This document shows positions 2,722-25,750 of a DNA stretch of 30,378 nt, piece after piece. Every line of letters starts with the position of its first letter. The stretch's first letter is position 1. The notes under the pieces were generated by a model. It made no database searches, was not told the origin of the DNA, and saw nothing but the letters and a program-made list of their open reading frames with translations. The DNA comes from a candidate division TM6 bacterium GW2011_GWF2_37_49 (GTDB lineage: Bacteria > Babelota > Babeliae > Babelales > RVW-14), in contig CAMATL010000013.1 in the NCBI GenBank assembly GCA_945861145.1, positions 1-30,378 on the forward strand. Reading direction: 5' to 3'. Both the position numbers and the translations under genes were made by a program.

Positions 2722-4398
2722 ATGAAACAGCTTAAACGCCTTTGGGCGTACACGAAACGTTATTGGAAGATGTTGGCAGCATCGCTTTCTTCGGCCGCCT
2801 TATTCGGCGTAGTTGCCGCGGGTCCGACCTATCTTTTAAAGCGGGTTGTAGATGATATTTTTGTGAATAAAAATCATCATCTCATTCTTCCCATGGCCTT
2901 TGTATTGGTATTTATTTTTGCCTGCAAGGGCATTTTTAGTTTTTTGACTTCATACACCATGCATTGGGTTGGGCATCGCGTTGTTAACGACATACGTTCC
3001 GATTTGTTGGTAAGCGTTATGTGTTATCCGCTGAGTTTTTTTCAGGCGATGACGACAGGGCAGCTTATGTCACACTTTCTCAATGATGTACAGATGATGC
3101 AAAACGCCGCATCGGCGACCATAAAAAACGGTGTGCGAAGCCTTTTTGAAACAATGTTTTTGATTACTTTTGCTTTTCTTCAAAACTGGCAGCTAGCACT
3201 CATGATGGTGTTAGTGGGGCCGGTGATGGGTGTGATTATTAAAAAAATGGGCGCATCAATCAAGCGTTCATCATATCGCATCCAGCAAGAAGTAGGATCG
3301 CTCAGTGATCAGCTACAAGAAACGTTTAGCGGCATGCGTGAAGTGAAGGCTTTTAATGCTGAAGCTTACCATATTTCTCGCTTCGACAACCAGCTCCAAA
3401 GATTTTTTACGGCGACTATGCGTTTTGTTAAAGCTGAAGCACTGCTTCCTTCGCTCATTGAGCTGGTAACCATGGTTGGTGCAGCGCTTGCGTTTTATGT
3501 GGCAGCACAGCAGGTGATCAGTGGCTACATCACCCCCGGGCAATTAACGTCATTTGTGGCGGCATCACTTTTGGCCTATGCGCCGATGAAGCGACTTATC
3601 AATGTGTATGGTGAAATTCAATATGCTTTGGCTGCAGCAGATCGTGTTTTTATGCTGATGGATCGTGTGGTGCCTGCGCAACGCATTGGGCAGCACATAT
3701 CGTTTAAAGAGCAAATTTCATTCAATAATTTATCATTTGCCTACGCGCCAGACCGCCCGGTACTGCGCAATATTAATTTGACACTAAAAAAAGGCGAGCG
3801 GGTTGGCATTGTTGGGCCTTCTGGAGGGGGCAAGAGCACGTTGATTGACCTTCTGCTTGGCTTTATCACTCCGATTGACGGGACCATTACCATTGATGGC
3901 CAGGTGCTTACGCTGGGGAATGGTGCGCAGTGGCGTCACTATGTTGGTTATGTTGGCCAGCGGCCATTTTTGTTTAATGATACCGTACAAAACAATGTGA
4001 TGTATGGTCGAACTAAATTGAATCAAGAATCTATTCAGACGGCAATTGAAGCGGCTGATGCTCAAGATTTTGTCTGTGCGTTAGCAAAGGGATACGACAC
4101 CATGCTGGGTGAAAACGGCAATCTCTTGTCTGGCGGGCAACGACAACGGTTAACGATTGCACGAGCGCTTGCTGGGCGCCCACAATTATTAATTTTTGAT
4201 GAAGCGACTGCATCGCTTGATGCAGCTTCTGAAGATGAAATAAAAAACTCATTACAGCGCTTGCCTGCCGATGTGACCGTAATTATCGTTACGCATCGAG
4301 CCTCATTGCTTAAAGCCGTAGATCGAGTATTGCTTGTGGATGACAATTCGGTGCGTGTTGTACTCAAAGATCAGGCGCTGCGTTCGGTAGCGGTCTAA
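2722..4398 (+). CDS. ABC exporter, fused permease + ATPase (MsbA/lipid A exporter-like)
   Basis: An N-terminal domain with six predicted transmembrane helices, followed by Walker A GPSGGGKST, the ABC signature LSGGQRQRLTIARAL and Walker B LLIFDEATASLD. Confidence 0.9.
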   Translation: MKQLKRLWAYTKRYWKMLAASLSSAALFGVVAAGPTYLLKRVVDDIFVNKNHHLILPMAFVLVFIFACKGIFSFLTSYTMHWVGHRVVNDIRSDLLVSVMCYPLSFFQAMTTGQLMSHFLNDVQMMQNAASATIKNGVRSLFETMFLITFAFLQNWQLALMMVLVGPVMGVIIKKMGASIKRSSYRIQQEVGSLSDQLQETFSGMREVKAFNAEAYHISRFDNQLQRFFTATMRFVKAEALLPSLIELVTMVGAALAFYVAAQQVISGYITPGQLTSFVAASLLAYAPMKRLINVYGEIQYALAAADRVFMLMDRVVPAQRIGQHISFKEQISFNNLSFAYAPDRPVLRNINLTLKKGERVGIVGPSGGGKSTLIDLLLGFITPIDGTITIDGQVLTLGNGAQWRHYVGYVGQRPFLFNDTVQNNVMYGRTKLNQESIQTAIEAADAQDFVCALAKGYDTMLGENGNLLSGGQRQRLTIARALAGRPQLLIFDEATASLDAASEDEIKNSLQRLPADVTVIIVTHRASLLKAVDRVLLVDDNSVRVVLKDQALRSVAV

Positions 4399-4525
4399 AA
4401 ATAGTAAAAGGCCCCCGAGATTTCTCTCGAGGGCCTTTTTTCATTACTAAAAGTGCTCACACCTAAGCAGCTTTATTATCTTTGTCTTTTTCTTGTTAAC
4501 CAAGCGTGCCAAGGAACGCCGGCAA
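4396..4525. repeat. Direct-repeat copy (~94% identity) of 6677..6807: terminator plus degraded flotillin C-terminal codons (minus strand reads ...LPAFLGTLG-stop)
   Basis: Direct nucleotide comparison with 6677..6807 shows 8 mismatches over about 130 bp. In this copy Gln -> stop (gttgacc -> gttaacc). Confidence 0.85.
4406..4441. terminator. Rho-independent bidirectional terminator (A-tract, 11-bp stem with one mismatch, T-tract); copy 1 of a duplicated element
   Basis: aaaa GGCCCCCGAGA tttc TCTCGAGGGCC tttttt lies immediately after the ABC-exporter stop codon. Confidence 0.7.
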
Positions 4526-4526
4526 A

Positions 4527-5027
4527 TTAATCTTCATCTATATAAATTGATATAATTTTTTCAGGACGTTCCGGTCCAGAAATAGGACAATCATATTGAA
4601 ACCTTTGCCTTGCAGTTTGAAAGTTTTCAAACTGACTAGTGTAACCATTGATAGAAGATCTATCGTTAAATAACGACGGATACGTTTGATCAAGGATAAC
4701 AAACGCCCCACTATTCTTCAGAATGACATCTCCACAATGAAATATCTTCGTAAAATCATCTGATTCTAGTGGCCCTGCAGCAAGGGGAATAACATGTATT
4801 TGTACATTCTCTTTTTTATAAACGCGCACTCCAGTACCTGAATCAACGGTCTTTTCCCATCCTCCATCTTCTCTAATCACAAGCGGATCTCGAGGATCAC
4901 GAAAACAACTAAATGATGGATCAACAAGAAAAATATAAATAGGGACTGTTGGGTGTTGTCCTATAAACTCTTGTAAATACAGTGGAAATTGTTGATCTCG
5001 AGCTTCTTGGATAATACTGTTACGCAA
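4527..5027 (-). CDS. Hypothetical protein (166 aa), no recognisable family; stop codon is the first triplet of a 1.27-kb insertion in the flotillin-tail remnant
   Basis: Clean ORF whose TAA (4527-4529) directly abuts the end of the repeat copy. Lies downstream of the 201-aa ORF on the same strand, with a 35-bp gap. Confidence 0.5.
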   Translation of the reverse strand: MRNSIIQEARDQQFPLYLQEFIGQHPTVPIYIFLVDPSFSCFRDPRDPLVIREDGGWEKTVDSGTGVRVYKKENVQIHVIPLAAGPLESDDFTKIFHCGDVILKNSGAFVILDQTYPSLFNDRSSINGYTSQFENFQTARQRFQYDCPISGPERPEKIISIYIDED

Positions 5028-5062
5028 ATAATTAGGCCTATTAAGAAAATCAACGTAACAAC

Positions 5063-5668
5063 CTAATGCAAAAATAAAACCGCAGGTTCTTGAATCGGCT
5101 CAGCTAGCTGATGTAAATGTTGAAATAACACTTCTCTAACTTGCTTATTTTTTTCTCTCACTGCAGTCTTAACACTTTTATCACCAACCTCAAGCGTTGG
5201 CAACGCCCAAGCAACCTGCTCGTCTAAAGCTTGATAATCTGTGTCAGAATCTAGTCGATACATACTAAAAAGCTTTCTTGAAAGAAGATAAATTTGAAAA
5301 AAATGTTGTAATCCTGGGTCAGCAAATGGCTGAAAATCAGCAGAATAACCTGGTGTAATAGCATACTCCCAACCAGTTATATCATTAGGTCTTTGACTGG
5401 ACCGTAAACTGTCTTTATAGTTCTCAAATTTTGAGAATTCAGCTTTTGCCGCATTATATTCTTCAGCTGAGATATTAAAACTCTTTTGCCATGCGTCCTC
5501 TTGAGCCTGTCGCCAAACAGCTTCTTCAGTTGGTAGCTCTGAATACCTGTAGAAATACCCCATCGGCTTTACATTCAAACTAACAAAAGTCAGCATCAGC
5601 ATACAACTCAACACTTGTCGAACAAAATTCATACAAACCCCGCACAAACTTATCAATGCAATTAACAT
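5063..5668 (-). CDS. Hypothetical protein (201 aa), probably exported: hydrophobic N-terminal stretch, possible alternative start MNFVRQ at 5632
   Basis: N-terminus ...CMLMLTFVSLNVKP resembles a signal peptide. No recognisable domain. Co-oriented with 4527..5027. Confidence 0.5.
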   Translation of the reverse strand: MLIALISLCGVCMNFVRQVLSCMLMLTFVSLNVKPMGYFYRYSELPTEEAVWRQAQEDAWQKSFNISAEEYNAAKAEFSKFENYKDSLRSSQRPNDITGWEYAITPGYSADFQPFADPGLQHFFQIYLLSRKLFSMYRLDSDTDYQALDEQVAWALPTLEVGDKSVKTAVREKNKQVREVLFQHLHQLAEPIQEPAVLFLH

Positions 5669-5796
5669 ATCCTATTCATAAGCTTAGTAGCGATATATTC
5701 AAACAGTCAATATAAAAGTGCTAATTAATCATCTTTTTTATATTGATCACGCACGCCTAAGAAGGCTTGAGAACTCTTGCTTACCCTGATTTTTAT

Positions 5797-5856
5797 ACAA
5801 AAACTAATGCCACTCATTGCTGCAATATCATGCAACGGCGGTAGCGACTTGACCAT
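5797..5856. repeat. Second piece of the degraded flotillin 3'-end copy (~86% identity to 6812..6871); minus strand reads ...MVKSLPPLHDIAAMSGI
   Basis: Aligns to the intact flotillin codons ...SMVKSLPPLHDIAALSGI. Together with 4396..4525 it forms one remnant, split by the 4526..5796 insert, which sits exactly where the intact copy has gtct. Confidence 0.8.
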
Positions 5857-5962
5857 GCAGCTCATAGCCCGACTCAAACCCTAGTCATTTAGGACGAAAA
5901 CATTGTAGTTATTGCATGAAATAGTACCTTAATGATAGTCTCTTTGGAGATAGGAGGACCTT

Positions 5963-6283
5963 ATGATCACAAAAGAATTATTTGATGAGATCACACGTCG
6001 TTTAGTTCAAGCATACGATCCTGAAGCAATTTATCTTTTTGGATCTTACGCATGGGGTTCACCAACCGATGATAGCGACGTTGATCTTGCAATTATTGTA
6101 CGGGTAGCAAACCCTCGCCGTATTAAACGTACACTTGCCGCTTCAGAAGCATTATGGGGACTCGGCATCTCCAAAGACGTAATCGTTTACACGCAAGAAG
6201 AATTTGCTCGTGCAGCAGAACATCCTTCAACACTGGCCCATAAAATTTTACAAGAGGGACATGTGTTGTATGGAAAGGCATGA
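5963..6283 (+). CDS. Minimal nucleotidyltransferase (MNT, NTP_transf_2-type), antitoxin-like partner of the downstream HEPN protein
   Basis: Contains the G-S-x9-13-D-x-D motif (LFGSYAWGSPTDDSDVDL). Small at 106 aa. RBS ggagataggagga lies upstream. Confidence 0.8.
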   Translation: MITKELFDEITRRLVQAYDPEAIYLFGSYAWGSPTDDSDVDLAIIVRVANPRRIKRTLAASEALWGLGISKDVIVYTQEEFARAAEHPSTLAHKILQEGHVLYGKA

Positions 6284-6686
6284 ACTATGGCTTTATAAAG
6301 CTGAGGGGGATCTGGCTCTTGCGATAGAGGCATTGGCTATACCAAATGAAAAAATTCGGGATGCCGCAATTTATCACACGCAACAAGCTGCTGAAAAAGC
6401 ATTAAAGGCTTTTCTCGTTTTTAAGCGCGAACCATTACTCAGAACACACGACCTAGAAGATCTTCTCTGGATATGCATGAAGCATGATATTTCGTTCAAT
6501 TATCTTTTTAGATTTGCAGCACAGCTCAATCCTTTAATTATGGAATATCGCTATCCACTCGAAGATTTTGATGAACCTCAAACACCGTTGCCTGAAGAGT
6601 TAAGAGAGGCAATAGAAGCCGCAACAGAGGTTTTTAAGTTTGTAGTCGATATGATCGCAACTGATTCCGTCAGCAGTAAAAAATAG
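6270..6686 (+). CDS. HEPN-domain protein (PF05168-like), toxin-like partner of the MNT
   Basis: Contains ...HTQQAAEKALKAFLVFKREPLLRTHDLEDLL (an R-x6-H-type HEPN motif). Overlaps the MNT gene by 14 bp. Start chosen at ATG 6270, which has an acceptable spacing to the GAGGGA upstream. Alternative start ATG 6261. The listed ORF begins further upstream at 6204. Confidence 0.75.
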   Translation: MERHELWLYKAEGDLALAIEALAIPNEKIRDAAIYHTQQAAEKALKAFLVFKREPLLRTHDLEDLLWICMKHDISFNYLFRFAAQLNPLIMEYRYPLEDFDEPQTPLPEELREAIEAATEVFKFVVDMIATDSVSSKK

Positions 6687-6687
6687 T

Positions 6688-6724
6688 AAAAGGCCCACGG
6701 AATTTCTCTCGAGGGCCTTTTCTC
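6688..6724. terminator. Copy 2 of the duplicated terminator-like element (weaker stem than copy 1), between the convergent HEPN and flotillin genes
   Basis: aaaaGGCCCacggaatttctctcGAGGGCCttttctc. Confidence 0.45.
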
Positions 6725-6744
6725 ATTACTAAAAGTGCTCACAC

Positions 6745-8097
6745 CTAAGCAGCTTTATTATCTTTGTCTTTTTCTTGTTGACCAAGCGTGCCGAGGAACG
6801 TTGGTAAGTCTATGCCACTCAACGCTGCAATATCATGCAACGGCGGCAGTGATTTGACCATGCTGCTCATAAAGTTTGCGGTAGATGAGCCACCCTTGTC
6901 GCCATTGCCACTGTCCCAAACCGTGATCTTATCAATCTTAAGATTTTTGATCGCTTCGGTTTGGAGCTTGACCATTTCTTCCATCTTTTCGACTAAGAGC
7001 ATGGTTGCAGCTTCGCGAGGGTTACCACCGCAAGCATTAACCAACATACGGTAACCATCTGCCTTAGCAGCCAATACCTTCAAGGTACCTTCAGCTTCAG
7101 CCTGCTTAAGGGCAATTACAGCTGCTGCTTTACCGGTAGCTTCAATTCTTTCACGATCAGCCTCAGCCGCTGCATCGATCGATATTTTACGCTTTTCAAT
7201 TTCTTTGGGCACAATTTGCTCTGCTTCAAGACGCGCAAGCTCAGAAAGGCTTTTTGCTCTGCTGATCTCAGCATTTGATTGCTGTTGTGACACCTGGCCA
7301 CGCATAGCCGCTTCTGATTCACGTTGCAAAAGTTCTGCATTAAATGCTGCAATTCTTGCTCGTGCATCGTTTTCGCCCTGTACCGCTTCAGCATTAAAGC
7401 TGGTTACTTTGATACGACGTTCGCGATCCGCTTCTGCACTACCAATATCGCCGCGCTTTTCTTGTTCAGCCACATCTACTTTAGCTTGGTTGATAGCGGT
7501 TGAAGCCGCTTTTTTACCAATGCTTTCAATATAACCAGACTCATCCGTGATATCGGTGATGTTTACGTTAAGCAACATCAAACCAATTTTACGAAGCTCA
7601 GGCTCAATGTGCTTGCGAATTTCCATCAAAAAGCGCTCACGGTCTTGGTTGATTTCTTCAATACGCAAAGAAGCAACCGTCAAACGTAGCTGACCAATAA
7701 TGATTTCAGTCGCCATCATCTCAATGCCTTTGATTGGCAAGCCCAACAAGCGAACTGATGCGTTATTCATCGCTTCAGCTGTCGTATCAATCGCCACCGT
7801 AAAAGTACTTGGCACGTTGATACGAATATTTTGCTGAGACAGCGCCGACTTAAGCGGGATGTGCAAAGTAATCGGGGTCAAATCGAGATAATCATAATCT
7901 TGGATCAATGGCCACACAAAGGTACCACCGCCATGATAACATCTAACCGACTCGCCGCCCGTCACCTTACCATACACGGCTAAGATGCGGTTTGATGGAC
8001 AACGCTTGTAGCAATTGGCCAAAAACACGAAGGTGAAAAAAATGAACGCTGTGGCTGCTACAATCGCAGCTACAAAAAAGTTAATCGTTACAAACAT
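6745..8097 (-). CDS. Flotillin-like SPFH/band-7 protein (FloA/YqiK-type)
   Basis: N-terminal transmembrane helix, an SPFH domain, then a long Ala/Glu-rich coiled-coil region (EAEQIVPKEIEKRKISIDAAAEADRERIEATGKAAAVIALKQAEAEG...). Confidence 0.85.
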   Translation of the reverse strand: MFVTINFFVAAIVAATAFIFFTFVFLANCYKRCPSNRILAVYGKVTGGESVRCYHGGGTFVWPLIQDYDYLDLTPITLHIPLKSALSQQNIRINVPSTFTVAIDTTAEAMNNASVRLLGLPIKGIEMMATEIIIGQLRLTVASLRIEEINQDRERFLMEIRKHIEPELRKIGLMLLNVNITDITDESGYIESIGKKAASTAINQAKVDVAEQEKRGDIGSAEADRERRIKVTSFNAEAVQGENDARARIAAFNAELLQRESEAAMRGQVSQQQSNAEISRAKSLSELARLEAEQIVPKEIEKRKISIDAAAEADRERIEATGKAAAVIALKQAEAEGTLKVLAAKADGYRMLVNACGGNPREAATMLLVEKMEEMVKLQTEAIKNLKIDKITVWDSGNGDKGGSSTANFMSSMVKSLPPLHDIAALSGIDLPTFLGTLGQQEKDKDNKAA

Positions 8098-8169
8098 GTT
8101 ACGACTCCTTACCTCTAAAGATGTTTAATAAAAATCACATTTATGGACATACTGATAAGATATACCAGC

Positions 8170-8433
8170 TCACTTAAAAAATCTTTTTGTTGTTTGAGCG
8201 TAGACTTGGATTTGCGGTTTTTTTATCCACACAGTCACCACAATCATCAGCCATACTGTAATCACAGCACATGAAATAGCTGAAGAAACGGATAGCCCAA
8301 AATAAACTCCAACAACGCACAACACAATTTGTGTGGCTAGCACGGTGGCAATCCTGGGAACTACAAGCAACAAAAGTAAACTTACGGTGAGCGCAACAGT
8401 AGCGGCTATCAAAAAATCTGATGTTATAACCAT
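8170..8433 (-). CDS. Small polytopic membrane protein (87 aa) between NfeD and flotillin
   Basis: Strongly hydrophobic throughout, with AAGGAG six nt upstream of the ATG. The overlapping 88-aa Cys-rich frame (8174..8440) is rejected. Confidence 0.5.
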   Translation of the reverse strand: MVITSDFLIAATVALTVSLLLLLVVPRIATVLATQIVLCVVGVYFGLSVSSAISCAVITVWLMIVVTVWIKKPQIQVYAQTTKRFFK

Positions 8434-8460
8434 GTTGCAACTCCTTAATTACTTAACTAT

Positions 8461-8613
8461 TTAATTGATACAGCCCTTGCATCGGCTATCTAAGCAGCCA
8501 CAAGAAAAAGCTCGCAGATACGAAGAAAATGACACATAACGCCTGTACAGGCTTGCCAAAACAATGCCGGCAAACGTACCAGGCAACAGAAAATGAATAA
8601 ATCCAGATAACAT
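8461..8613 (-). CDS. Possible 50-aa single-TM peptide (MLSGFIHFLLPGTFAGIVLASLY...), too short to appear in the ORF track
   Basis: ATG lies 12 nt after the NfeD stop codon, with AAGG upstream. Contains one hydrophobic helix. Support is weak. Confidence 0.2.
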   Translation of the reverse strand: MLSGFIHFLLPGTFAGIVLASLYRRYVSFSSYLRAFSCGCLDSRCKGCIN

Positions 8614-8624
8614 ATAAAAAAACC

Positions 8625-9200
8625 TTAAACTTTAAACTGTTCTACGACTACGGTGTGCTCATCAACAACGGCTACCACTCGTACGTGAACAAAAGAATCA
8701 ATCTCAGCGCCTTCATGCGCTTTAGCAGCAAGTTCACGCGTCATACCACGCACTTCCACCTGCACCTTGCCATCTTCTGTAGCTGTGATGCGCTGGTATA
8801 CAATGGCTGGCAACCCAATCGCCTCTTCAATGCGAAACACGGTGCCATGACTGGTCACATGGGATGCGCCATAAAAAATGGCCCCAACAAGCAACATCAT
8901 GAAACAACCAGCCAACAATGCAAGCCCAAGCGTCAGCCCAAACGGGTAATCAAGCTGATGGCGCAACCCAAGACCAAGCAATCCAAACACCATTAAAAAA
9001 CCGGTAAGGGTGTGCAAGGTCAAAAATTTAAACGTTGGCTCAACATCTTCATGATGATGGTCGGCATCATCAGCATCACCAAATACACTGCCAGAAAGCA
9101 TCAACAAGCCGCGCAGAGCAAACAAGGTAACGCCGGTAATTGCGCATACCAAAAATATTAAATCGGCAGAGCCGTGAATAGAGCTTAGATAGGTGAACAT
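8625..9200 (-). CDS. NfeD-like membrane protein (short YuaF-type: TM helices + C-terminal OB-fold), partner of flotillin
   Basis: Hydrophobic N-terminal half. The C-terminal VFRIEEAIG...GKVQVEVRGMTRELAAKAHEG...VHVRVVAVVDEHTVVVE resembles the NfeD beta-barrel. Sits upstream of flotillin on the same strand. Confidence 0.7.
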   Translation of the reverse strand: MFTYLSSIHGSADLIFLVCAITGVTLFALRGLLMLSGSVFGDADDADHHHEDVEPTFKFLTLHTLTGFLMVFGLLGLGLRHQLDYPFGLTLGLALLAGCFMMLLVGAIFYGASHVTSHGTVFRIEEAIGLPAIVYQRITATEDGKVQVEVRGMTRELAAKAHEGAEIDSFVHVRVVAVVDEHTVVVEQFKV

Positions 9201-9438
9201 GGCTCACTCCTCAGGGAAAAAGAACCAAATTTATTAACAATAATGACGTTAAGCTATCGAAAATACTAACCCCTCGATGCCTTCGACAAGCTCAGGACTG
9301 TCGGGATATTTAAATTAATCGGGGCGATCGGGGTTGATTTTTATTTTATTAGCTCTTCAACTCCGAGCATGGTGAGTGTCCACCTAAGCCTTGGCGCAGG
9401 CTGGATGTATCGAACCATAAAATTCAAACGACCACCGA

Positions 9439-9466
9439 ATTCTATCAGGTGCTGGACAAAAGTCAA
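9439..9466 (-). promoter_or_regulatory. Near-consensus sigma70 promoter on the minus strand (TTGACT, 16-bp spacer, TAGAAT) reading toward the NfeD-flotillin operon; implies a ~230-nt leader
   Basis: Read on the reverse complement: ttgacttttgtccagcacctgatagaat. Confidence 0.35.
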
Positions 9467-9674
9467 CATCCTTTTTTGCCCATATTGCGCAATACATGGC
9501 GCATATGCCGCAACAACAACTCATTTAATGCACAGGCAGCAGATAACAGGCTAAGAGGTGCAACAAATAATCGTAATCGCGCCTGCCCGCGGGCAAAATA
9601 AATATTAATCGCAGGTTCAACCTTGAAGTGCATTGCAAAATACCAAGGGGCGCACGCCACTATATTTGACTGCG

Positions 9675-10514
9675 CTACTCGATATCAAAATCAAAATAAG
9701 TATCAGGGAATGGCTCATTATTGAGCGTGTAGTGCCACCATTCTTGCTCGTAAGCGCGAAAGCCCTGTTTTTCCATTTTAGTGCGCAGGTAATTGCGTTG
9801 AGTGGCGCACTCATCAGCTACCTTAGGGCTACTATGGTGTGATGCTTGATCCAAAAGATCCCAGCTTGAGCCCATGTCTACAGTGCCGTCATCAAGAAAA
9901 GGCAACGTCTCACAGCCTTTTACTGAACGAAGCGCAAAGATTGGTGCTTTGAGCTTGCCATCCACTTTGATTATTGAAAGGTCGATCGTGCTGCCGCGTG
10001 TATGGCCAGATTTTTTAGCAACATAACCACGGTCAAAAACATTTCTTTTATCGATTTTTGGGTAGTATTTTGCTTTCATTGCTTGGTCGTTTAAATCTTC
10101 GCTCCAGCGCATAAAGTGATTAACTGCTTTTTGAGGGCGATAAGCATCGTACACAACGAGGCTATAGCCATTCTCTAAGAGCTCTTTTTGAACCTTGCTC
10201 AGTGCTTGCGCCGCCTGCTTGGTTATGACAATACGAGCTGCTTTGTAACCGTCAACCCTTGCGCCAACAAAGTTTTCCGTCGAAAAATAACGCACTGATG
10301 CTTGTATGGTTTTATCCTGCTCATCCAGGTACACAAAGCCTTCTGGGATTGAAAAGCATGTGGCAGCAAAAACAGCAACAAACGCTACTGAGAGCTCAAG
10401 GCCGCGTAAAAACCTAATAATCATAGGATAATCCTTTCTTGATTTGTGCTTACCCATCATCATAGCCATGTCCTTAACCCTTGTACAACAGGGCTTGATC
10501 AACAAACAACTCAT
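9675..10514 (-). CDS. ddpX: D-alanyl-D-alanine dipeptidase, peptidase family M15D (VanX/DdpX-like), with an N-terminal signal or anchor sequence
   Basis: LVVYDAYRPQKAV, the zinc-ligand region SGHTRGSTIDLS and EQEWWHYTL all match the DdpX/VanX family. The true start may be the internal MIIRFL (hydrophobic leader). Confidence 0.8.
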   Translation of the reverse strand: MSCLLIKPCCTRVKDMAMMMGKHKSRKDYPMIIRFLRGLELSVAFVAVFAATCFSIPEGFVYLDEQDKTIQASVRYFSTENFVGARVDGYKAARIVITKQAAQALSKVQKELLENGYSLVVYDAYRPQKAVNHFMRWSEDLNDQAMKAKYYPKIDKRNVFDRGYVAKKSGHTRGSTIDLSIIKVDGKLKAPIFALRSVKGCETLPFLDDGTVDMGSSWDLLDQASHHSSPKVADECATQRNYLRTKMEKQGFRAYEQEWWHYTLNNEPFPDTYFDFDIE

Positions 10515-10745
10515 TTATTTCTTCTAAGCTCAATTGCTTAAAAATCTTCATGGCGACACTTTTTCTGCTTACCCTGAATTATATCAGGGACGGTGGCACA
10601 CTTCATCCTAGAATTTCCCTTTCATTATTGACTTTGCCCCTGCCATATTTCAAATTATTTTATTTTTGATTGCAAATAGAAATTAAAATAATGTAGGCTG
10701 AATAAATGAGTAATAGTTTTACTAAACCAAATCCAGGAGATATCC

Positions 10746-11096
10746 ATGAAGAACATGAACAAACTTTTCTTAATGTCTGCTCTTTTATTAGCAGCAAGTT
10801 CAACAAGTTACGCTGTAATGAATTTGCAACTCGATAATGATCGAGCTGAAGCTCTAACTGCACATTTTGCTCAACCTTTGGCCGATGGCCGAATGCACGA
10901 AGCTGTTAATGCCAACAGTCAAGAAACTGTTGAAGTTAGCAGCAAATGGCTAAACAATGAGGTTGTTGTTACTTGGAAAAATGCAGCTGGCGAAGTGAAG
11001 GATACGGATACTGTCCACTTCGACAATGCTAATGAAACTCTTAAATCTTCGTCTGATGATGACCAAGGCGACGGTCACGCAGACAAATTACGCTAA
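10746..11096 (+). CDS. Small secreted protein (116 aa), unknown function
   Basis: Signal peptide MKNMNKLFLMSALLLAASSTSYA. RBS ccaggagatatcc upstream. A terminator follows. Confidence 0.6.
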   Translation: MKNMNKLFLMSALLLAASSTSYAVMNLQLDNDRAEALTAHFAQPLADGRMHEAVNANSQETVEVSSKWLNNEVVVTWKNAAGEVKDTDTVHFDNANETLKSSSDDDQGDGHADKLR

Positions 11097-11137
11097 TCCA
11101 GCACCGTAATTTTTTTAATTCTAGATTAGAATTGTAG

Positions 11138-11169
11138 GGCCTTGGTTTTAAAAACCAAGGCTCTTTTTA
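11138..11169 (+). terminator. Rho-independent terminator
   Basis: GCCTTGGTTTT a AAAACCAAGGC followed by tcttttt. Confidence 0.75.
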
Positions 11170-11285
11170 ATTAGATCTCTTCCGAAACTTAAACTTTTAA
11201 TGTAACAGACTCAAATTCAAACTCTGCGTAACCTTCAGTTTGTGGTACACTGGATCAAACATGGCCATACAAAGAAGGATCTGGT

Positions 11286-12536: not shown

Positions 12537-12540
12537 TAAA

Positions 12541-13287: not shown

Positions 13288-13839
13288 GCTTCCAATCTCA
13301 CGGTAATTAAAAATGTTGACTGAAAAACAAGTTTATCTATGTTAAAAAAAATAGCAAAATCGAAAAATATTCTAAAAAAAACGCCGCATCCTTGACTTTA
13401 TCATTTCACAAGTTTGGTCAAATATTATTTTCCAATTGAAAAATATAAATCCAACTAATCTTACAAGAAAAGACGCTTGAACTCAACCCACAAATGCTTT
13501 CAAATAAAACCAATCATCCATGGCTGCCTTTGGTTAAAAAATTCAAACTGACAGTATTAACTTCTCTTAAAAAGAACCAATTCAACGACCCAATAGGCTC
13601 TTAACTAAAATACTAAATTGTTATCAACAACATTGTTGGTAACCTAATCGAGTGCTTGGGAAAGCCCTTGCCTAGAGAGCTTGCCTGCAATGTGTCCCAA
13701 AATTATACAGTTGCTTGCCCACCGACTAGCCCACTCTTTTAGGCAATGTTTACATAAAGTTTTTTTTTACGACACAACAGTAAAAAACCTCTTTAAAATC
13801 GATTAATTTTGTATACTTATCAAAAAACTTGCTGAAAGG

Positions 13840-15297: not shown

Positions 15298-15301
15298 GGA
15301 T

Positions 15302-16918: not shown

Positions 16919-17039
16919 GCCACTCCTTTATTTAACAATAATTCGGCGCCATACCAACAGGATGCATTGCACCTTCTCCAAAAATTAGTATGCTCAGAAC
17001 GTTGCAAAGCACAAGGAAGAGTAATGAAGAGGAGAGGTA

Positions 17040-19130: not shown

Positions 19131-19830
19131 TCACAATCGACGCATTATTAAGGGCTTGCTTTTCGATCTTGATAACACATTGTATCATTATAATCCTGCT
19201 CATGAAGCTGGACTCAGTGCTGTTTTTAAAACACTCAGTCAACAAGTAACTCAATCTCCAGCAGAATTATCTACCGTTTACGAGCAGGCAAAGCAACAGG
19301 TTAAACACCGACTTCATAGTACCGCAGCTTCTCATCATCGACTACTATATCTTCAAGCTATGCTTGAACTGCTTGGGCTTTTCTCTCCCACCCTTACCCA
19401 AGATCTTTACAACCATTACTGGAATGCATTTTTTGCAGCCATGCAACCAATTACAGGGATGAGTGAAACCCTGCATAGATTAGCAAAAAGCTATAGTATC
19501 GGAATAGTAACTAATTTTGTTGCAGACATTCAGTATCGAAAACTTGAACAACTCGGTATTGCAAACCTCATAAGCCATCTCGTCACAAGCGAAGAAATAG
19601 GCTGCGAAAAACCTGATCCAAGAGTCTTTTTTGCCGCTTGTAAAAAAATGCAGCTACAAGCAGATGAGGTATGCATGATCGGTGACGATCTAGAGATTGA
19701 TATAATTCCTGCACAACATTTAGGCATGGAAACTTATTGGCTGGTCCCACAAACCAGTACTACAAAACAAGAGCATTCATTGTTTAAAACATGTTCGACC
19801 TTCTATGACATCGAAGAGAGATTACAATGA
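19120..19830 (+). CDS. HAD-superfamily hydrolase (subfamily IA-like phosphatase)
   Basis: Motif I FDLDNTLY, motif II IGIVTNF and motif IV GDDLEIDI. Overlaps the upstream gene by 11 bp. Confidence 0.8.
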   Translation: MQANHNRRIIKGLLFDLDNTLYHYNPAHEAGLSAVFKTLSQQVTQSPAELSTVYEQAKQQVKHRLHSTAASHHRLLYLQAMLELLGLFSPTLTQDLYNHYWNAFFAAMQPITGMSETLHRLAKSYSIGIVTNFVADIQYRKLEQLGIANLISHLVTSEEIGCEKPDPRVFFAACKKMQLQADEVCMIGDDLEIDIIPAQHLGMETYWLVPQTSTTKQEHSLFKTCSTFYDIEERLQ

Positions 19831-20924
19831 CAACAATCTTAGACCTTATTGAACTTTCAAAATGGGCCGGCCAACGCTTTGACCTCGTGCAAGCTGGCGG
19901 GGGTAACTCATCATTTAAAACTGATGATAACCAAATGTTTATTAAAGCATCTGGCATTAGTTTAAGCGAAGTAAGCACATCAAATGGTTTTGTTACCGTT
20001 GATTTAGTCCCCTTGCGCAAAGGGCTTACAAAGCTACACAAACAACAAGAAACCCTTGATAAAAAAGCGCTCGAAGCTGCTGCAGAAGAACTTCTAGCTA
20101 AAGTAAAAACAGCAACCAACGTCGCTCGCCCATCAATCGAGACCTTTTTACATGCTTATCTTGAGACCTATGCTATGCACACTCACGGCATTGTAGTTAA
20201 CACAATTGCTTGTCGTAAAAATTGGCGCGAAACTTTTGAGCAAATTTTCCCCGAGAGCCTCTGTGTTTCCTATAAAACACCAGGCATTGAGCTCGCGCTT
20301 GAACTCGACCTACAAGTCAGCGCCTACATCAAAGAAAAAGGCAAGAAACCAAGTATTATTTTTTTACAAAATCACGGGCTCATTGTCAGCGCACCAACAG
20401 CGGCTGAAGTTAAATTTTTGACCGAAGAAGTTACGATTAAACTCGAACAATTTCTTAATATCACCAACAATACGTACCGCTTAACATCAGTGATTTCGGA
20501 AAACATACACAACGTATTTGGCGCCAGCAAGGTTTCCTACCTTTCTAACGACGCAGGCCTACGCGAGCTAATTATTAATGCAAAGCCTTTATTTTTCCAA
20601 CGACCATTTACCCCTGACACACTCGTGTATTGCGGCGTGCGCCTGCTCGTCCTCAATGATTTTGACGATGCAGACACACTAACTAAATATAAAGAAAATT
20701 TCACAGAAATTCCTCGTGTTATTATTTGCCGCGATCTGATATTTTTCATTGCAGATTCAGTACGCAAAGCACGCGAGATCGAAGAAGTACTGAAATTTCA
20801 CCTTGCAGTACTTGTGATTAATGTCACCCAAAATATTCAACCACAAGACATTCAATTCTTGGAAGAAGAAGAGCTTAATTATTTAGCCAAATGGGATGCT
20901 GAAAAGTACCGTCAGGCAGTTTAA
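19827..20924 (+). CDS. Class II aldolase/adducin-family domain protein (ribulose-5-P 4-epimerase / MtnB-dehydratase-like N-terminal domain) + C-terminal domain of unknown function
   Basis: AGGGNSSFK (substrate-phosphate-binding GN-S motif), the HTHG metal-ligand pair and the NHGLIVSA motif. ATGA overlap with the HAD gene. Confidence 0.65.
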   Translation: MTTILDLIELSKWAGQRFDLVQAGGGNSSFKTDDNQMFIKASGISLSEVSTSNGFVTVDLVPLRKGLTKLHKQQETLDKKALEAAAEELLAKVKTATNVARPSIETFLHAYLETYAMHTHGIVVNTIACRKNWRETFEQIFPESLCVSYKTPGIELALELDLQVSAYIKEKGKKPSIIFLQNHGLIVSAPTAAEVKFLTEEVTIKLEQFLNITNNTYRLTSVISENIHNVFGASKVSYLSNDAGLRELIINAKPLFFQRPFTPDTLVYCGVRLLVLNDFDDADTLTKYKENFTEIPRVIICRDLIFFIADSVRKAREIEEVLKFHLAVLVINVTQNIQPQDIQFLEEEELNYLAKWDAEKYRQAV

Positions 20925-20926
20925 AT

Positions 20927-20969
20927 AAAAAGAGAGATCCCTGGCCCTTGCCAGGGATCTCTCTTTTTA
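20927..20969 (+). terminator. Strong rho-independent terminator, bidirectional in form (A-tract, 14-bp perfect stem, T-tract)
   Basis: aaaAGAGAGATCCCTGGcccttgCCAGGGATCTCTCTttttt. Confidence 0.85.
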
Positions 20970-20987
20970 AGTCGAAAGAAAACCCAC

Positions 20988-22697
20988 ATGCACATCATTA
21001 TCCCAATGTCTGGCGTAGGCGCACGATTTCAAGCCGCAGGATACAAAGACCCCAAGCCTCTTATCTTGGTAGATGGCAAACCAATTATTGAGCATGTGGT
21101 TAATCTTTTTCCAGGCGAAACAAAATTCACCTTCATCTGCAATGAAGAGCATTTACAAACCACCGCAATGCGTGAAATCTTACAACGCATTGCTCCCTTA
21201 AGCTCCATTGCAAGCATCCCTCCACACAAGTTAGGCCCCGTATTTGCAACACTGCAAATGCAAGATTTAATCGATGACCAAGAAGAAGTAATCGTTAATT
21301 ATTGCGATTTTGGCACCTACTGGGATTACCAAGATTTTTTAAGCCACACGCGCAATCGCGCCGCCGCCGGAGCTATTCCAGCCTATCGAGGTTTTCATCC
21401 CCACATGCTTGGTACCACTAACTACGCATTTATTAAAGATTCAAATCAATGGCTAGAAGCCATTAAAGAAAAAGAACCTTGGACCAATAATCGCCTGCAA
21501 GAATATGCCTCCAATGGCACCTATTATTTCGCACGCGGCAGCTACGTAAAAAAATATTTTGAACAGGCAATCAAGCGCAATTTAAGCATCCCCGGTGCGA
21601 CCGGTGCGAATGGCGAATTTTATGTAAGCCTTGTGTACAACCTCATGGTTGAAGACAAATTACCAGTCTCAATCTACGAAATTCAGCATATGCTGCAGTG
21701 GGGAACCCCGCAAGATTTACGCGAATACGAAGCCTGGTCTGGCTATTTTCGCCAGCTTGTGGAAAAACCAAGCATCTCTCAATCTGTTGAACAGCGGAGC
21801 GTTAACCTTATCCCGCTCGCAGGGCGCGGCAAACGATTTGCTGACGAAGGCTACACTACACCAAAGCCTTTAATTCCAGTCAGCGGTAAGCCCATGATTG
21901 TACAAGCAGCGGCAGCACTGCCACGAGCAGAACAGCAAATATTTGTGTGTTTACAAGATCATTTAAATACCGCCCCGCTTAAACAAGCACTTAAGCAGGC
22001 CTACCCTCATGCATCGGTGATTGGTATCAATGCCGTCACAGAAGGGCAAGCTTGTACGTGCGCCATTGGATTGAATAATGTTGCCCCTGAAGCACCTGTT
22101 ACTATTGGCGCTTGTGACAACAGCATGCTTTTCGATAGAAAAAAGTATGAGGCTTTGCGCGATCGCGCTGATGTCGATGCCATCATATGGACATTTAAAA
22201 ATCATCCTTCTGCAAAAACTAATCCACAAATGTACGGGTGGGTTATCACTGATGATCAAAATAAGGCCGTAGGCGTTTCAGTAAAAAAAGCAATCTCATC
22301 TACGCCTGAAAAAGACCATGCCATTGTTGGTGCTTTTTATTTTAAAAAAGCAGCTCATTTCACGGCAGGACTTGAATCACTCTATAAAAACAATATTCGC
22401 ATAAATAATGAATTTTATGTCGACAGCCTCTGCGGAGAGCTGATCAAACTCGGGCTCAATGTTTATGTCTTTGAAGTTGATTTTTATGTGTGCTGGGGAA
22501 TCCCAAACGATTTACGCACCTTCAATTACTGGCAAAGCTTTTTCCATAAGTGTTCATGGCACCCCTACTCAATCAGCAAGGATCATATGGTTGCAGCTGA
22601 GGCTCAACAAAAGCTCATTGAGGAAGCAACAACATTTGCACAATCATGTGACTCTTTTTATAGTTCGCAATCAAACGATTTAGCAAAAACGATTTAG
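20988..22697 (+). CDS. Protein with two tandem sugar-phosphate nucleotidyltransferase (NTP_transferase/GxGxR-type) domains
   Basis: Each half begins with the nucleotidyltransferase signature: IIPMSGVGARF...PKPLILVDGKPIIEHV and LIPLAGRGKRF...PKPLIPVSGKPMIVQA. Confidence 0.7.
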   Translation: MHIIIPMSGVGARFQAAGYKDPKPLILVDGKPIIEHVVNLFPGETKFTFICNEEHLQTTAMREILQRIAPLSSIASIPPHKLGPVFATLQMQDLIDDQEEVIVNYCDFGTYWDYQDFLSHTRNRAAAGAIPAYRGFHPHMLGTTNYAFIKDSNQWLEAIKEKEPWTNNRLQEYASNGTYYFARGSYVKKYFEQAIKRNLSIPGATGANGEFYVSLVYNLMVEDKLPVSIYEIQHMLQWGTPQDLREYEAWSGYFRQLVEKPSISQSVEQRSVNLIPLAGRGKRFADEGYTTPKPLIPVSGKPMIVQAAAALPRAEQQIFVCLQDHLNTAPLKQALKQAYPHASVIGINAVTEGQACTCAIGLNNVAPEAPVTIGACDNSMLFDRKKYEALRDRADVDAIIWTFKNHPSAKTNPQMYGWVITDDQNKAVGVSVKKAISSTPEKDHAIVGAFYFKKAAHFTAGLESLYKNNIRINNEFYVDSLCGELIKLGLNVYVFEVDFYVCWGIPNDLRTFNYWQSFFHKCSWHPYSISKDHMVAAEAQQKLIEEATTFAQSCDSFYSSQSNDLAKTI

Positions 22698-22756
22698 CCG
22701 CTACCAAGACAGCTTGAATATTTAAACCTACCTGCACTCAAAAGCCCTGGCAATTC

Positions 22757-22785
22757 TTGACAACAGCTATAAACCCGCGCTAAAT
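22757..22785 (+). promoter_or_regulatory. Sigma70-type promoter of cassette copy 1 (TTGACA, 17-bp spacer, CTAAAT); 48-nt leader conserved with copy 2
   Basis: ttgacaacagctataaacccgcgctaaat. Paralogous block at 25674..25702. Confidence 0.55.
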
Positions 22786-22833
22786 TTCGCCCAGTTAGTC
22801 ATTTATTGCTGATTCCTATTTGAAAGGGCTATC

Positions 22834-23199
22834 ATGGATTTAATTATGAGATGTAATAAGTGCAACAGAGAGGTTCATTTTGCTGAATTTATGGGGTATG
22901 CAACAGGATATTTGCTTGAAAAAATTGGTCCTATGTTATTAGAGGCGACCGTTAAGGCCCTTATTGCATGTCTTACAGCCACAGCAGAAAAATCCTCACC
23001 AAATGCACCTACAGAAATCACCTTACAAACCAGAGGGGTGGTAGATAATACAATGGCTGGTATAGCTCTTTACTTTAAAATTGCCTGCCCTGATTGCAAA
23101 CAATGCTGCTGGCAAGCAGCTTCTACACCTAACGTAGAAATTCAAAAAAAGGCCATACCAAAGAGTCCCCAAAAAAAAGAAGTCTCTACTTCAACTTAA
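22834..23199 (+). CDS. Small cytoplasmic CxxC...CPDC (zinc-ribbon-like) protein with Lys/Ser/Thr-rich C-terminal tail; family A, copy 1
   Basis: MDLIMRCNKCNREVHFAEFMGYA...IACPDCKQCCW...KKAIPKSPQKKEVSTST. Paralogous to 25751..26095. Confidence 0.6.
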   Translation: MDLIMRCNKCNREVHFAEFMGYATGYLLEKIGPMLLEATVKALIACLTATAEKSSPNAPTEITLQTRGVVDNTMAGIALYFKIACPDCKQCCWQAASTPNVEIQKKAIPKSPQKKEVSTST

Positions 23200-23237
23200 T
23201 TTGAAAATTAATTATAAATCGAAGAAAGGGGAGTGTA

Positions 23238-23759
23238 ATGAATGTTTATCAAATTATGTTTATTAGCATACTTGTAGTATCAACACCGCTGATTGCATGG
23301 GACAACAAGGATGTCAATCAAGAATTAGAAATTTCTTGCAATGCTGATTTAACTTCACTTCTCAATGAAAACATCTCCAAATTCACTGTCATGGCTGTTA
23401 AAGCTAACTCGGTGGTAGTTTTTTTTGATGAAAAATTCAATGGCAACCCAGAATTAATTTGTACAAACTGCAGCAGAAGACTTTCTTATGCTGAATTTTT
23501 TGGTGTTATTGGAGCCATGACACTACAAAAAGTGCTAACAAGTAGCGATAAGTTTGAAGTTGTCATCTCTTTTTTTGACTCATTTACTAAGTTACTTGAA
23601 GCAGAAAATTTGGCCGTAATTGCAGCTTTCATGCTGGAATCAATTAAAAAAAAAGATGATCTGAGGAGCTATCCATGCCCAGATTGCAAGAAAAGTAACT
23701 CATGGATTTATGCCCCATATGAATCAGAAGTCAACGCAAAAATCAAAGCCCAGGCATAA
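23238..23759 (+). CDS. Secreted CxxC...CPDC protein; family B, copy 1, distantly related to family A
   Basis: Signal peptide MNVYQIMFISILVVSTPLIA. Core CTNCSRRLSYAEFFG...YPCPDCKKSNSW. RBS aaaggggag. Paralogous to 26134..26670. Confidence 0.6.
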   Translation: MNVYQIMFISILVVSTPLIAWDNKDVNQELEISCNADLTSLLNENISKFTVMAVKANSVVVFFDEKFNGNPELICTNCSRRLSYAEFFGVIGAMTLQKVLTSSDKFEVVISFFDSFTKLLEAENLAVIAAFMLESIKKKDDLRSYPCPDCKKSNSWIYAPYESEVNAKIKAQA

Positions 23760-23787
23760 CTGCTAAAAAAATCTACCACTCACTTTG

Positions 23788-24023
23788 TTGAAGTTGATTT
23801 TTATGTGTGTTGGGGAATCCCAAACGATTTACGCACATTCAATTACTGGCAAAGCTTTTTCCATAAATGTTCATGGCACCCCTACTCAATCAACAAGGAT
23901 GATATGATTGCAGCTGAGGCTCAACAAAAGCTCATTGAGGAAGCAACAACATTTGCACAATCATGTGACTCTTTTTTTACTTCTCAGTTGAGTAAAAAAA
24001 AGGTGACTGAATTATGCAAATAA
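23788..24023 (+). pseudogene. Duplicated 3' fragment of the nucleotidyltransferase gene (~97% identity to 22471..22659). It has no ATG (the listed ORF 23805..24023 starts at a GTG) and preserves a different, probably ancestral, C-terminus overlapping the GNAT start
   Basis: 6 mismatches over about 190 bp against 22471..22659. Homology fades over the next ~13 bp in both copies. In-frame remnant reads ...VCWGIPNDLRTFNYWQSFFHKCSWHPYSI... Confidence 0.75.
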
Positions 24024-24514: not shown

Positions 24515-24559
24515 TCAAACTATACTCTTCATGGTTGAAAAACAGGATTTTGGTGGATC

Positions 24560-24627
24560 CCGGCTCGCAGGCCGGGATGACAGGAGAGGAATGACCTTCT
24601 ACATTGTCATCCCGCCCTGCGAGCCGG
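24560..24627. repeat. GC-rich 23-bp inverted repeat (22/23 match) with a 22-nt spacer, between convergent genes; REP/MITE-like palindrome or bidirectional terminator
   Basis: CCGGCTCGCAGGCCGGGATGACA ... TGTCATCCCGCCCTGCGAGCCGG. Each arm also carries an internal CCGG...CCGG mini-palindrome. Confidence 0.6.
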
Positions 24628-25702: not shown

Positions 25703-25750
25703 TTCGCCCAGTTAGTCATTTATTGATGGTTCCTCAGCGAAAGGATTATC

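Follow-up and report, generated by a model that had tools for sequence, protein, structure and literature searches.

Duplicated gene ends beside accessory genes in a candidate division TM6 bacterium: probable traces of homology-assisted insertion

Introduction

How do accessory genes come to lie between two long copies of the end of a chromosomal gene? The question arises twice in the DNA analyzed here, a stretch of 30,378 nucleotides (the window) from a candidate division TM6 bacterium GW2011_GWF2_37_49, once beside a flotillin gene (site 1) and once beside a sugar-phosphate nucleotidyltransferase gene, NT (site 2). A first-pass annotation had described both sites as foreign cargo held between direct duplications of about 190-200 bp of the target gene's 3' end, and had suggested for them one common mode of acquisition, the integration of circularized DNA through a short patch of homology, as opposed to transposition or tRNA-targeted integrases. 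Here we compare both sites with related assemblies and weigh the explanations for their shared structure.

Results

A split duplicate with two cargos at the flotillin site

The repeated unit at site 1 is 193 nt long and joins 66 nt of intergenic DNA, including a terminator hairpin, to the 127 nt at the end of flotillin. The other copy of the unit is broken into two parts, B' and A', with cargo on both sides of A'. The features are as follows.

2722 to 4398, plus strand: ABC transporter (MsbA-like; Pfam ABC_membrane and ABC_tran), a core gene convergent with flotillin
4397 to 4527, minus strand: B', the ABC-proximal part of the duplicate, 93-95% identical to 6679-6809
4528 to 5804, minus strand: cargo 2, two ORFs (4527-5027, 166 aa; 5063-5668, 201 aa)
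5805 to 5866, minus strand: A', a 5'-truncated flotillin fragment (MSCMVKSLPPLHDIAAMSGI) and the other half of the split duplicate, 90% identical to 6810-6871
5867 to 6678, plus strand: cargo 1, a promoter region and an MNT-HEPN toxin-antitoxin-type pair (Pfam, PADLOC)
5963 to 6283, plus strand: MNT nucleotidyltransferase (Pfam Polbeta/NTP_transf_2; PADLOC match PDC-S09)
6270 to 6686, plus strand: HEPN (Pfam HEPN)
6679 to 6871, minus strand: the intact unit H (B plus A), made up of the terminator, a spacer and the functional 3' end of flotillin (127 nt)
6745 to 8097, minus strand: flotillin (SPFH/Band 7; Pfam Band_7), complete

B' contains a terminator hairpin (4406-4439, a terminator-like site), a spacer and the final 63 nt of flotillin in a dead form that bears a nonsense change (CAA to TAA), while A' encodes Met at a position where all sampled functional alleles of the species encode Leu. 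The MNT-HEPN pair (5963-6686) is placed between A' and the intact unit. The repeat reported at this site by the first-pass annotation is therefore real with the correction that its second copy is split, and because the unit includes 66 nt of intergenic terminator DNA it is not purely a gene 3' end, a description that is accurate for NT. Cargo stop codons or terminators had also been thought to stand in for the displaced gene ends. The reverse was found: flotillin and NT keep complete native ends, and it is unit H, part of the duplicated chromosomal DNA, that provides the stop codon of HEPN (TAG, 6684-6686). The repeat might conceivably extend about 45 nt further, into the ABC 3' end (in the HEPN tail), with a shuffle p of about 0.0005-0.01 depending on the window length used.

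The related assembly L008 presents the empty state of this site. Flotillin and the ABC gene are convergent there, the latter 109 nt from the flotillin stop, with one complete copy of the unit and nothing missing; the insertion therefore added DNA and duplicated its target without deleting any, a one-copy naive allele with no target loss being seen by comparison at site 1 only. The flotillin tail of the window matches that of L008, and the two proteins differ at one residue (listed as 100%). MNT-HEPN is absent from L008 and adjoins flotillin in at least 10 assemblies. Alignment to L008 further shows that cargo 2 separates B' from A' cleanly, at a cost of no more than 2 nt and without a duplication of its own. 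Its ORFs gave no Pfam or PADLOC match; the same cargo recurs at 99% identity in L014 (where two frameshifts compensate each other), L016, L017 and L019.

Variants of the flotillin site among related strains

The site 1 architecture is also present in at least five other assemblies (L014, L017 and L019, with variant arrangements in L015 and L016). The junction between A' and the MNT-upstream region is the same in every strain examined closely (L015 and the window), and L014-L022 are collinear across it at 99%. Across the site, five cargo junctions fall at five positions of the unit (approximately 6588, 6665, 6771, 6809/10 and 6871, a spread of about 280 nt), and the events at site 1 were therefore not site-specific.

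A further module, X, carries an AAA-ATPase gene. Its left junction is identical in both strains that contain it, but it adjoins the ABC gene in L015 and HEPN in L016, the latter position being read from the last 567 nt of one contig. L015 also has a 291-nt repeat (98.3% identity) that includes 91 nt of HEPN, together with a 99-nt repeat. The positions of X and the L015 repeat are both what one would expect from unequal crossing-over between repeat copies, or from excision followed by reintegration. L015 is also adequately described as a tandem duplication of cargo plus unit whose interior was then replaced by the AAA-ATPase gene (291-nt and 99-nt repeats, 98-100%). This speaks for an origin of the repeats in situ, by local tandem duplication of a gene end (through replication template switching, MMBIR or unequal sister-chromatid exchange), with foreign DNA captured at the interior or later replacing it, and no homology-guided import.

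Among strains whose cargo is 99% identical, the flotillin-proximal repeat exists as two classes of allele that diverge by about 11%, so later allelic replacement or gene conversion must have overwritten copies. Dating the duplication by copy divergence was dropped for this reason. The overwriting also weakens any argument from the divergence of the copies, which in their present state cannot prove a diverged origin over one in situ, and it prevents a test for reciprocal donor and recipient chimerism around a crossover, for which outgroup polarization of the NT copies is mixed.

A length of about 190-200 nt was considered as a mechanistic constant. This idea was weakened, because the 190-nt repeat around X is explicable as replacement inside a tandem duplicate and because repeats elsewhere measure 139 nt (L012) and 291 nt (L015).

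A probable resident cassette and a probable newcomer at the NT site

Site 2 comprises the following features.

20988 to 22697, plus strand: NT, a two-domain sugar-phosphate nucleotidyltransferase (Pfam NTP_transferase/NTP_transf_3), complete
22471 to 22669, plus strand: repeat copy 1, the functional NT 3' end
22736 to 23787, plus strand: CxxC cassette 1, with a conserved promoter-like site (22757-22786) and genes for two paralogous CxxC...CPxC proteins (121 aa, 22834-23199; 173 aa, 23238-23759)
23788 to 23986, plus strand: repeat copy 2, a 5'-truncated NT remnant (ORF 23805-24023), kept in L004
24014 to 24514, plus strand: GNAT acetyltransferase (Pfam)
about 24540 to 24625: palindromic element between GNAT and APH
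24709 to 25599, minus strand: APH phosphotransferase (Pfam), GC-rich
25673 to 26670, plus strand: CxxC cassette 2 (114 aa, 25751-26095; 178 aa, 26134-26670), without a flanking repeat
26677 to 27396, minus strand: GT2 glycosyltransferase (Pfam), a core gene convergent with NT in relatives

The repeat at this site is as first described. Both copies correspond to sequence within the final 227 nt of NT and align without gaps over 199 nt at 95% identity (9-10 mismatches), with a longest shared identical run of about 68 nt, and the two-gene CxxC cassette lies between them. The stop codon of the remnant ORF overlaps the GNAT start. GC content in the GNAT-palindrome-APH block (24014-25599), whose APH gene is GC-rich, reaches 0.486, compared with about 0.40, and the best plasmid matches of APH are in Sinorhizobium, Criblamydia and Legionella. 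Over the promoter and first gene of cassette 1, cassette 2 shows 75-80% nucleotide identity. No PADLOC match was obtained for the CxxC proteins, GNAT or APH; the CxxC protein had no match in the viral contigs searched and a single locus in the metagenome search.

NT relatives were searched through the close variant P0001, the window NT protein itself having no exact look-up match. The orthologues (76-82%) sit in the same PRK-HAD-aldolase-NT context, with different cargo in different relatives: GT2 directly overlaps the NT end in L005, which has no cargo there, two other genes separate NT and GT2 in L006, and L012 has CxxC cassettes only, the equivalents of cassette 1 lying directly 3' of NT with no NT repeat between. 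A close naive strain was not found among the relatives of site 2; a genome-contig search with MurE returned only two distant relatives, and L003 was uninformative.

Because L012 has NT followed by CxxC without a repeat, and because the copy 1 tail (SQSNDLAK) matches the L012 tail (SQPNSLAK), the CxxC cassette looks resident at site 2, and the block of NT remnant, GNAT and APH, with copy 2, looks like the newcomer. The expectation that the foreign DNA is what lies between the repeats is thus probably inverted here. Outgroup polarization of the NT copies is mixed, with ancestral states in each and no clear "original", and the copy 1 and copy 2 tails each resemble the tail of a different outgroup. 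At least one other assembly, L004, has this architecture; it differs from the window strain by only 1.1%, with both copies conserved. The repeat copies had probably already diverged when they were joined, judging from this conservation, the 9-10 differences in 199 positions, the ancestral states in each NT copy and, at site 1, the ancestral Met codon of A', which none of the sampled functional alleles of the species has. These same observations speak against an origin of the repeats in situ, since the window copies are 5-10% apart, A' carries a codon found in no functional allele of the species, and the two NT tails point to different outgroups. Taking the L015 arrangement and the overwriting of copies into account as well, we regard an in situ origin as unlikely.

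Assembly artifacts and recombinases

The window forms one end (30,378 bases) of a MEGAHIT (k141) metagenome contig of 40,058 bases, and several strains are present in the sample series, a setting in which strain variants could be concatenated in one contig. However, the longest identical run between repeat copies (about 68 nt) is shorter than k = 141, the junctions of cargo and repeat are unique sequence, and L004, L014, L017 and L019, with variants in L015 and L016, yielded this architecture in independent assemblies of different samples, made with different assemblers. The chance that the duplications were made by the assembly is therefore, in our estimation, minute. Further gene-end duplications are present in the relatives L015, L016 and L012.

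A Pfam search of the window's main ORFs and of the variant cargos found no transposase or integrase domain, tyrosine and serine recombinases included, and the window contains no detectable tRNA, tmRNA or Rfam element. No inverted repeats of at least 40 nt were found, and no convincing motif or microhomology is shared by the repeat boundaries of the two sites. These results bear out the absence of a transposon or tRNA-targeting integrase footprint. They also bear on a rival account in which an integrase, since lost or acting in trans, placed at the 3' end of a protein gene an element that brought its own substitute gene end (CIME-like remnants). The geometry is the same as that of such islands, with an intact end on one side and a slightly different displaced end on the other, and the cargo includes toxin-antitoxin or defense-type genes. 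Nevertheless, in addition to the missing recombinase domains, the cargos measure only 0.8-1.9 kb, the five site 1 junctions lie at different positions and have no common motif, and the repeat boundaries at one site have no sequence in common with those at the other. We consider an integrase origin very improbable.

Discussion

We favor, with moderate confidence, a model in which the repeats arise by homology-assisted recombination between differently loaded, diverged haplotypes at hotspots between convergent gene ends. In this model the gaps between convergent core genes (ABC and flotillin; NT and GT2) act as accessory-gene hotspots in an uncultured bacterial population, probably Dependentiae- or Babeliales-like, and each long direct repeat would be the scar of an insertion-duplication event. 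Incoming DNA would stem from a diverged relative with the same core-gene end beside different cargo, and would be joined by homologous exchange in or beyond the gene 3' end together with a single illegitimate joint about 130-230 nt upstream of the stop. Such a combination would trap a 5'-truncated, dead copy of the gene end between two sets of cargo and leave the functional gene end complete. The repeat copies could then serve as substrates for ordinary homologous recombination, through which modules may spread, duplicate, permute and be deleted.

The unique joints of the two sites, 23787/23788 at site 2 and 5866/5867 at site 1, are candidates for the illegitimate step, with no more than about 2 nt shared at the NT joint. 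Cargo 1 has two non-native junctions (A' with the MNT-upstream region, and HEPN with B), and at least one earlier illegitimate event is therefore needed. The recombination pathway, and which haplotype was donor and which recipient, we infer; the donor haplotype was not recovered, either as NT-GNAT without cassette 1 or as MNT-HEPN without the duplicate. Circular single-crossover and linear versions of the model, the latter of the type of homology-facilitated illegitimate recombination (HFIR), cannot be separated here, as the same product would follow from a linear exchange between haplotypes that is homologous on one side and illegitimate on the other. Nor is this a universal mode of acquisition, because cargo 2, CxxC cassette 2 and the different cargos of L005 and L006 show no such footprint.

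A bolder extension would treat the unit of gene end and bidirectional terminator (about 100-290 nt) as a portable, recombinase-free attachment site, with RecA looping out cassettes as circles that re-insert at other copies in the same or another strain. We think this doubtful. If true, it would amount to a self-insulating cassette array that resembles an integron but has no integrase, and the similar repeat lengths (190, 193 and 199 nt) would reflect a length optimum.

The two sites show a known process at work in nature and reveal no new mechanism. Homology-assisted capture of foreign DNA is documented in the laboratory, and clear natural footprints outside polymorphic-toxin loci have seldom been pointed out. 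The empty, occupied, nested and permuted states of one site, seen in different samples of one uncultured lineage, provide a small natural series on the growth of integrase-free hotspots at convergent gene ends. For annotation they carry a warning, in that 5'-truncated gene-end fragments beside toxin-antitoxin or resistance-type genes are not necessarily marks of a transposon or prophage.

Comparison with known systems

Target-site duplications of transposons measure 2-15 bp, in contrast to the 190-290 nt repeats here, which are accompanied by neither terminal inverted repeats nor a transposase. Integron cassette arrays differ in that no intI gene and no attC-like element at the cassette boundaries was found, the cassettes having promoter-like sites of their own. 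The elements e14 and phage 21 integrate at the icd 3' end and carry a replacement gene end. The resulting direct repeats of the target 3' end, about 100-200 bp long and slightly diverged with the functional gene preserved, resemble those described here, but such islands depend on an integrase and a fixed crossover core, both absent here, and our junctions vary.

Campbell-type integration, in which a circular molecule with a patch of chromosomal homology enters by a single crossover (insertion-duplication), shares with our sites a cargo flanked by direct repeats of the homology patch, no loss of target and no dedicated recombinase. In E. coli, recircularized DNA integrating by a single crossover gave duplications of 109-950 bp in 56 of 60 clones (PMC3240628), a range that includes the lengths found here. 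The known cases are laboratory constructs or plasmids, whereas no circle, replicon or vector is visible in the window and the cargo units would be 1.0-1.3 kb. HFIR in natural transformation, which combines a homologous anchor in a core gene with a single illegitimate joint, would explain both the scatter of the junctions and entry beside a conserved gene. Canonical HFIR, however, usually removes about as much recipient DNA as it inserts and has joint microhomology of 3-10 bp (PMC3240628); here the target was duplicated instead (by comparison with L008), and the NT junction shows about 2 nt at most.

The displaced 3' ends of T6SS/Rhs arrays have been attributed to HFIR-like events (PMC5361080), and a toxin-like array of this orphan 3'-end type occurs in the related MAG locus L005. 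Our targets are housekeeping-type genes (Band_7 flotillin and NTP-transferase) and not polymorphic toxins, and the fragments are dead remnants in place of reusable toxin tips. At rhs, cdiA and T6SS effector-immunity loci a new end with its cargo enters upstream of the old gene end, which persists downstream, with a conserved stretch, as a repeat; the arrays that accumulate in this way are rearranged through homologous recombination (PMC5361080). Old gene ends are likewise kept here, as the NT remnant at 23788-24023 and the flotillin remnants A' and B'.

Direct repeats at two convergent gene pairs

A repeat search of the entire window returned two long direct-repeat systems, each in a gap between convergent core genes: site 1 lies between an ABC transporter gene and flotillin, and site 2 between a nucleotidyltransferase gene (NT; 569 aa, two-domain by Pfam) and a GT2 glycosyltransferase gene.

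Features of the two repeat systems (window positions)
4397-4527: B', one piece of the second copy of the site-1 unit
4528-5804: cargo 2, two unknown ORFs, exactly between B' and A'
5805-5866: A', the other piece of the second copy
5963-6686: MNT-HEPN toxin-antitoxin-type pair, between A' and the intact unit
6679-6871: intact unit; terminator hairpin, spacer and last 127 nt of flotillin (6745-8097, minus strand)
22471-22669: NT repeat copy 1, functional 3' part of NT (20988-22697)
23788-23986: NT repeat copy 2, NT remnant truncated at its 5' side

The long gene-end repeats reported in the first-pass annotation are real at both sites and recur in other assemblies, but the site-1 unit also includes a terminator and spacer, and its second copy is split. 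The proposal that stop codons or terminators of the cargo replace the displaced gene ends was not borne out, as both functional genes retain their full native ends and it is HEPN that borrows a chromosomal stop codon, supplied by the duplicated sequence. Cargo 2 lacks a duplication of its own, with at most 2 nt lost at insertion. At site 2 the repeat copies align without gaps over 199 nt at 95% identity; the frame of copy 2 (23805-24023) ends in a stop overlapping the start of the acetyltransferase gene GNAT (24014), and the tail encoded by copy 1 (..SQSNDLAKTI) is similar to that of NT in the related locus L012 (..SQPNSLAKDL..).

A' encodes ..AAMSGI, whereas all sampled functional alleles of the species, including that of the cargo-free locus L008, encode ..AALSGI, so the flotillin allele now present is not the source of A'. 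Methionine at this position also occurs in 83-91% homologues.

Three smaller features were observed in these genes. The ~45 nt that close the ABC gene (4353-4398) and the ~45 nt that close HEPN, past its Pfam domain (6635-6680), show weak gapped similarity (shuffle p ~0.0005-0.01), and the duplicated unit may once have extended into the ABC 3' end. Two compensating 1-nt indels in cargo 2, at 5068 and 5148, distinguish the window (gene calls of 201 and 166 aa) from locus L014 (187 and 201 aa); calls of 187 and 201/202 aa also appear in L016 and L019, and the 187-aa gene in L020. A frameshift may be present in one of the two versions. At NT codon ~203 (window ~21590), the window NT and the 98% variant P0001/L004 differ by an in-frame indel of 18 nt (PTSATS).

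The architectures in independent assemblies

The window forms the 30,378-base end of a 40-kb contig assembled with MEGAHIT (ENA analysis ERZ27280245), and the longest identical run between the NT copies is ~68 nt. Assembly duplication, named earlier as a finding that would overturn the proposal, is contradicted by the same architectures in independent assemblies. That of site 2 is found in L004, an independent contig from another sample (98.9% identity over 7.4 kb), which keeps both NT repeat copies with the exception of one SNP; that of site 1 is found at 99% identity in L014, L017 and L019, with variant arrangements in L015 and L016. On these comparisons, the repeat structures are not an assembly artefact.

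Site 1 across strains

MNT-HEPN adjoins flotillin in at least 10 assemblies, and the joint between A' and the region upstream of MNT is identical wherever compared, and so arose once. L015 (GCA_945869805.1) has the order ABC, B (99 nt), the AAA-ATPase gene X, a segment comprising 91 nt of the HEPN 3' end with B' and A', MNT-HEPN, B, A and flotillin, with repeats of 291 nt at 98.3% and 99 nt at 100% identity. L016 shares the joint between B(99) and X (99.85% over 666 nt), but there it follows MNT-HEPN instead of ABC, a placement based on the final 567 nt of a single contig. The same joint with different neighbours indicates that the repeat copy occupied by module X varies from strain to strain. 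Unequal crossing-over between the copies, or excision from one and reintegration at another, would account for this.

The site-1 cargo joints fall at five different places in unit coordinates (~6588, 6665, 6771, 6809/10 and 6871), and no common motif was present among the five. Among strains 99% identical in the adjacent cargo, the unit next to flotillin has two classes of allele ~11% apart, which shows that this copy was later overwritten; because of that overwriting, the 5-10% divergence between copies in the window is of no use for dating or as a test of chimerism. Three unrelated sequences serve as the short spacer from terminator to flotillin stop in the loci compared (window 6679-6871, L008, L010, L011, L015, L016 and L017). 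Together, allele classes and spacer versions mark a sharp recombination boundary at the joint between HEPN and the unit.

Probable resident and incoming sequence at site 2

The segment between the NT repeats had been taken as cargo, a reading that is probably inverted. In L012, NT is followed by a Cx173-like gene, a promoter, a Cx114-like and a Cx178-like gene (Cx names give protein length in aa), an array of CxxC cassettes with no NT repeat, and the window minus 23788 to ~25654 is roughly collinear with this arrangement. Furthermore, the Cx173 family matched only 11 cluster representatives among 1.84 billion, a number more in keeping with a resident family confined to this lineage than with a cassette of wide mobility. 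On the simplest reading, site 2 combines two haplotypes, one supplying the left part (NT-cassette 1...) and the other the right part (NT-GNAT-APH-cassette 2...). They would meet at one illegitimate joint, 23787|23788, 227 nt upstream of the second haplotype's NT stop, a product compatible with either haplotype as donor.

The two-gene cassettes (window 22736-23759 and 25655-26670; L012 698-2186) each encode two proteins: a small one of 114-121 aa, with CxxC...CPDC and a tail rich in Lys, and a larger one that has a signal peptide and the same CxxC...CPxC module. A promoter-like site and 5' leader (TTGACA-18-TAAATT) are conserved at ~80% nt, more strongly than the second gene (32% aa). The 3' ends of the large genes in L012 (1050-1188 and 2050-2188) are 91% identical over 139 nt, against ~34% for the remainder of the proteins, a pattern left either by gene conversion of the tandem paralogues or by a further gene-end duplication of the same kind.

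The phosphotransferase gene APH (24709-25599) has a GC content of 0.486 against a background of ~0.40, and the plasmid-borne genes closest to it are from Sinorhizobium (65%), Criblamydia sequanensis (61%) and plasmids of Legionella pneumophila (55%), the last annotated as fused GNAT/APH. Several of these hosts are also found in amoebae, a hint that genes are exchanged in that setting. Between GNAT and APH lies a GC-rich palindromic element (~24540-24625; cccggctcgcaggccgggatgaca ... tgtcatcccgccctgcgagccgg), which resembles a small MITE/REP-type repeat and, among the fetched loci, has an exact match outside the window solely in L004, at the same position.

Variable gaps and the extent of the footprint

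The named HisS, flotillin and NT homologues belong to MAGs of Candidatus Babeliales, Dependentiae and TM6 (55-62% identity for HisS); judged by this similarity rather than by a phylogeny, the host is probably an uncultured bacterium of the same group. At site 1, L008 (93-98% nt identity) has flotillin and the ABC transporter convergent, 109 nt apart, with a single unit copy and no cargo. At site 2, the MAG locus L005 has NT and the convergent GT2 gene in direct overlap, and relative to L005 all of window ~22570 to 26732 is extra; two unrelated genes occupy the gap in L006, and CxxC cassettes follow NT in L012.

A common footprint, as first proposed, holds for both window sites but not for several other insertions: long flanking repeats are absent at cargo 2, CxxC cassette 2, the L006 cargo and a 7-kb insert in L005, whose internal repeats are of polymorphic-toxin orphan type. 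Overall, repeat lengths are 99, 139, 190, 193, 199 and 291 nt, and the likeness of the two in the window may be chance.

The L005 insert (2993-9787; GCA_023249935.1), between aldolase and NT, carries RecT, an MBL-fold (Apyc1-like) protein, a 1264-aa protein and then small genes, with a 160-400-nt repeat present three times and encoding SSSP(D/N)EGLPEPK..PGFD.DEEV; it resembles polymorphic-toxin loci in which orphan ends have been displaced. Window 10631-11205 (a 116-aa ORF region) and 13306-13754 (upstream of MurE), at 69-81% identity to L008 in surroundings of 92-98%, may be further variable spots.

A proposed mechanism for gene-end duplication

Pfam searches of the main window ORFs and of the variant cargos gave neither an integrase nor a transposase, and tRNA and Rfam searches were likewise negative. 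The junctions are scattered, and the target sequence is duplicated rather than deleted. The original assignment to a homology-assisted class, neither transposition nor integrase-driven, is upheld by these observations. Together with published precedents, they lead us to favour homology-assisted insertion-duplication between diverged haplotypes, with homologous recombination among the repeat copies as a later step, as the origin of the repeats; the circular version, as originally put forward, and a linear one would lead to the same product. When recircularised DNA integrated by a single crossover, 56 of 60 clones carried the homology duplicated over 109-950 bp, whereas true homology-facilitated illegitimate recombination (HFIR) experimentally produced deletions (PMC3240628). 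In T6SS and Rhs arrays, old gene ends are displaced and retained behind a newly arrived end, an outcome ascribed to HFIR-like events (PMC5361080). The gene-end duplications described here would represent a natural instance of a known, homology-assisted process.
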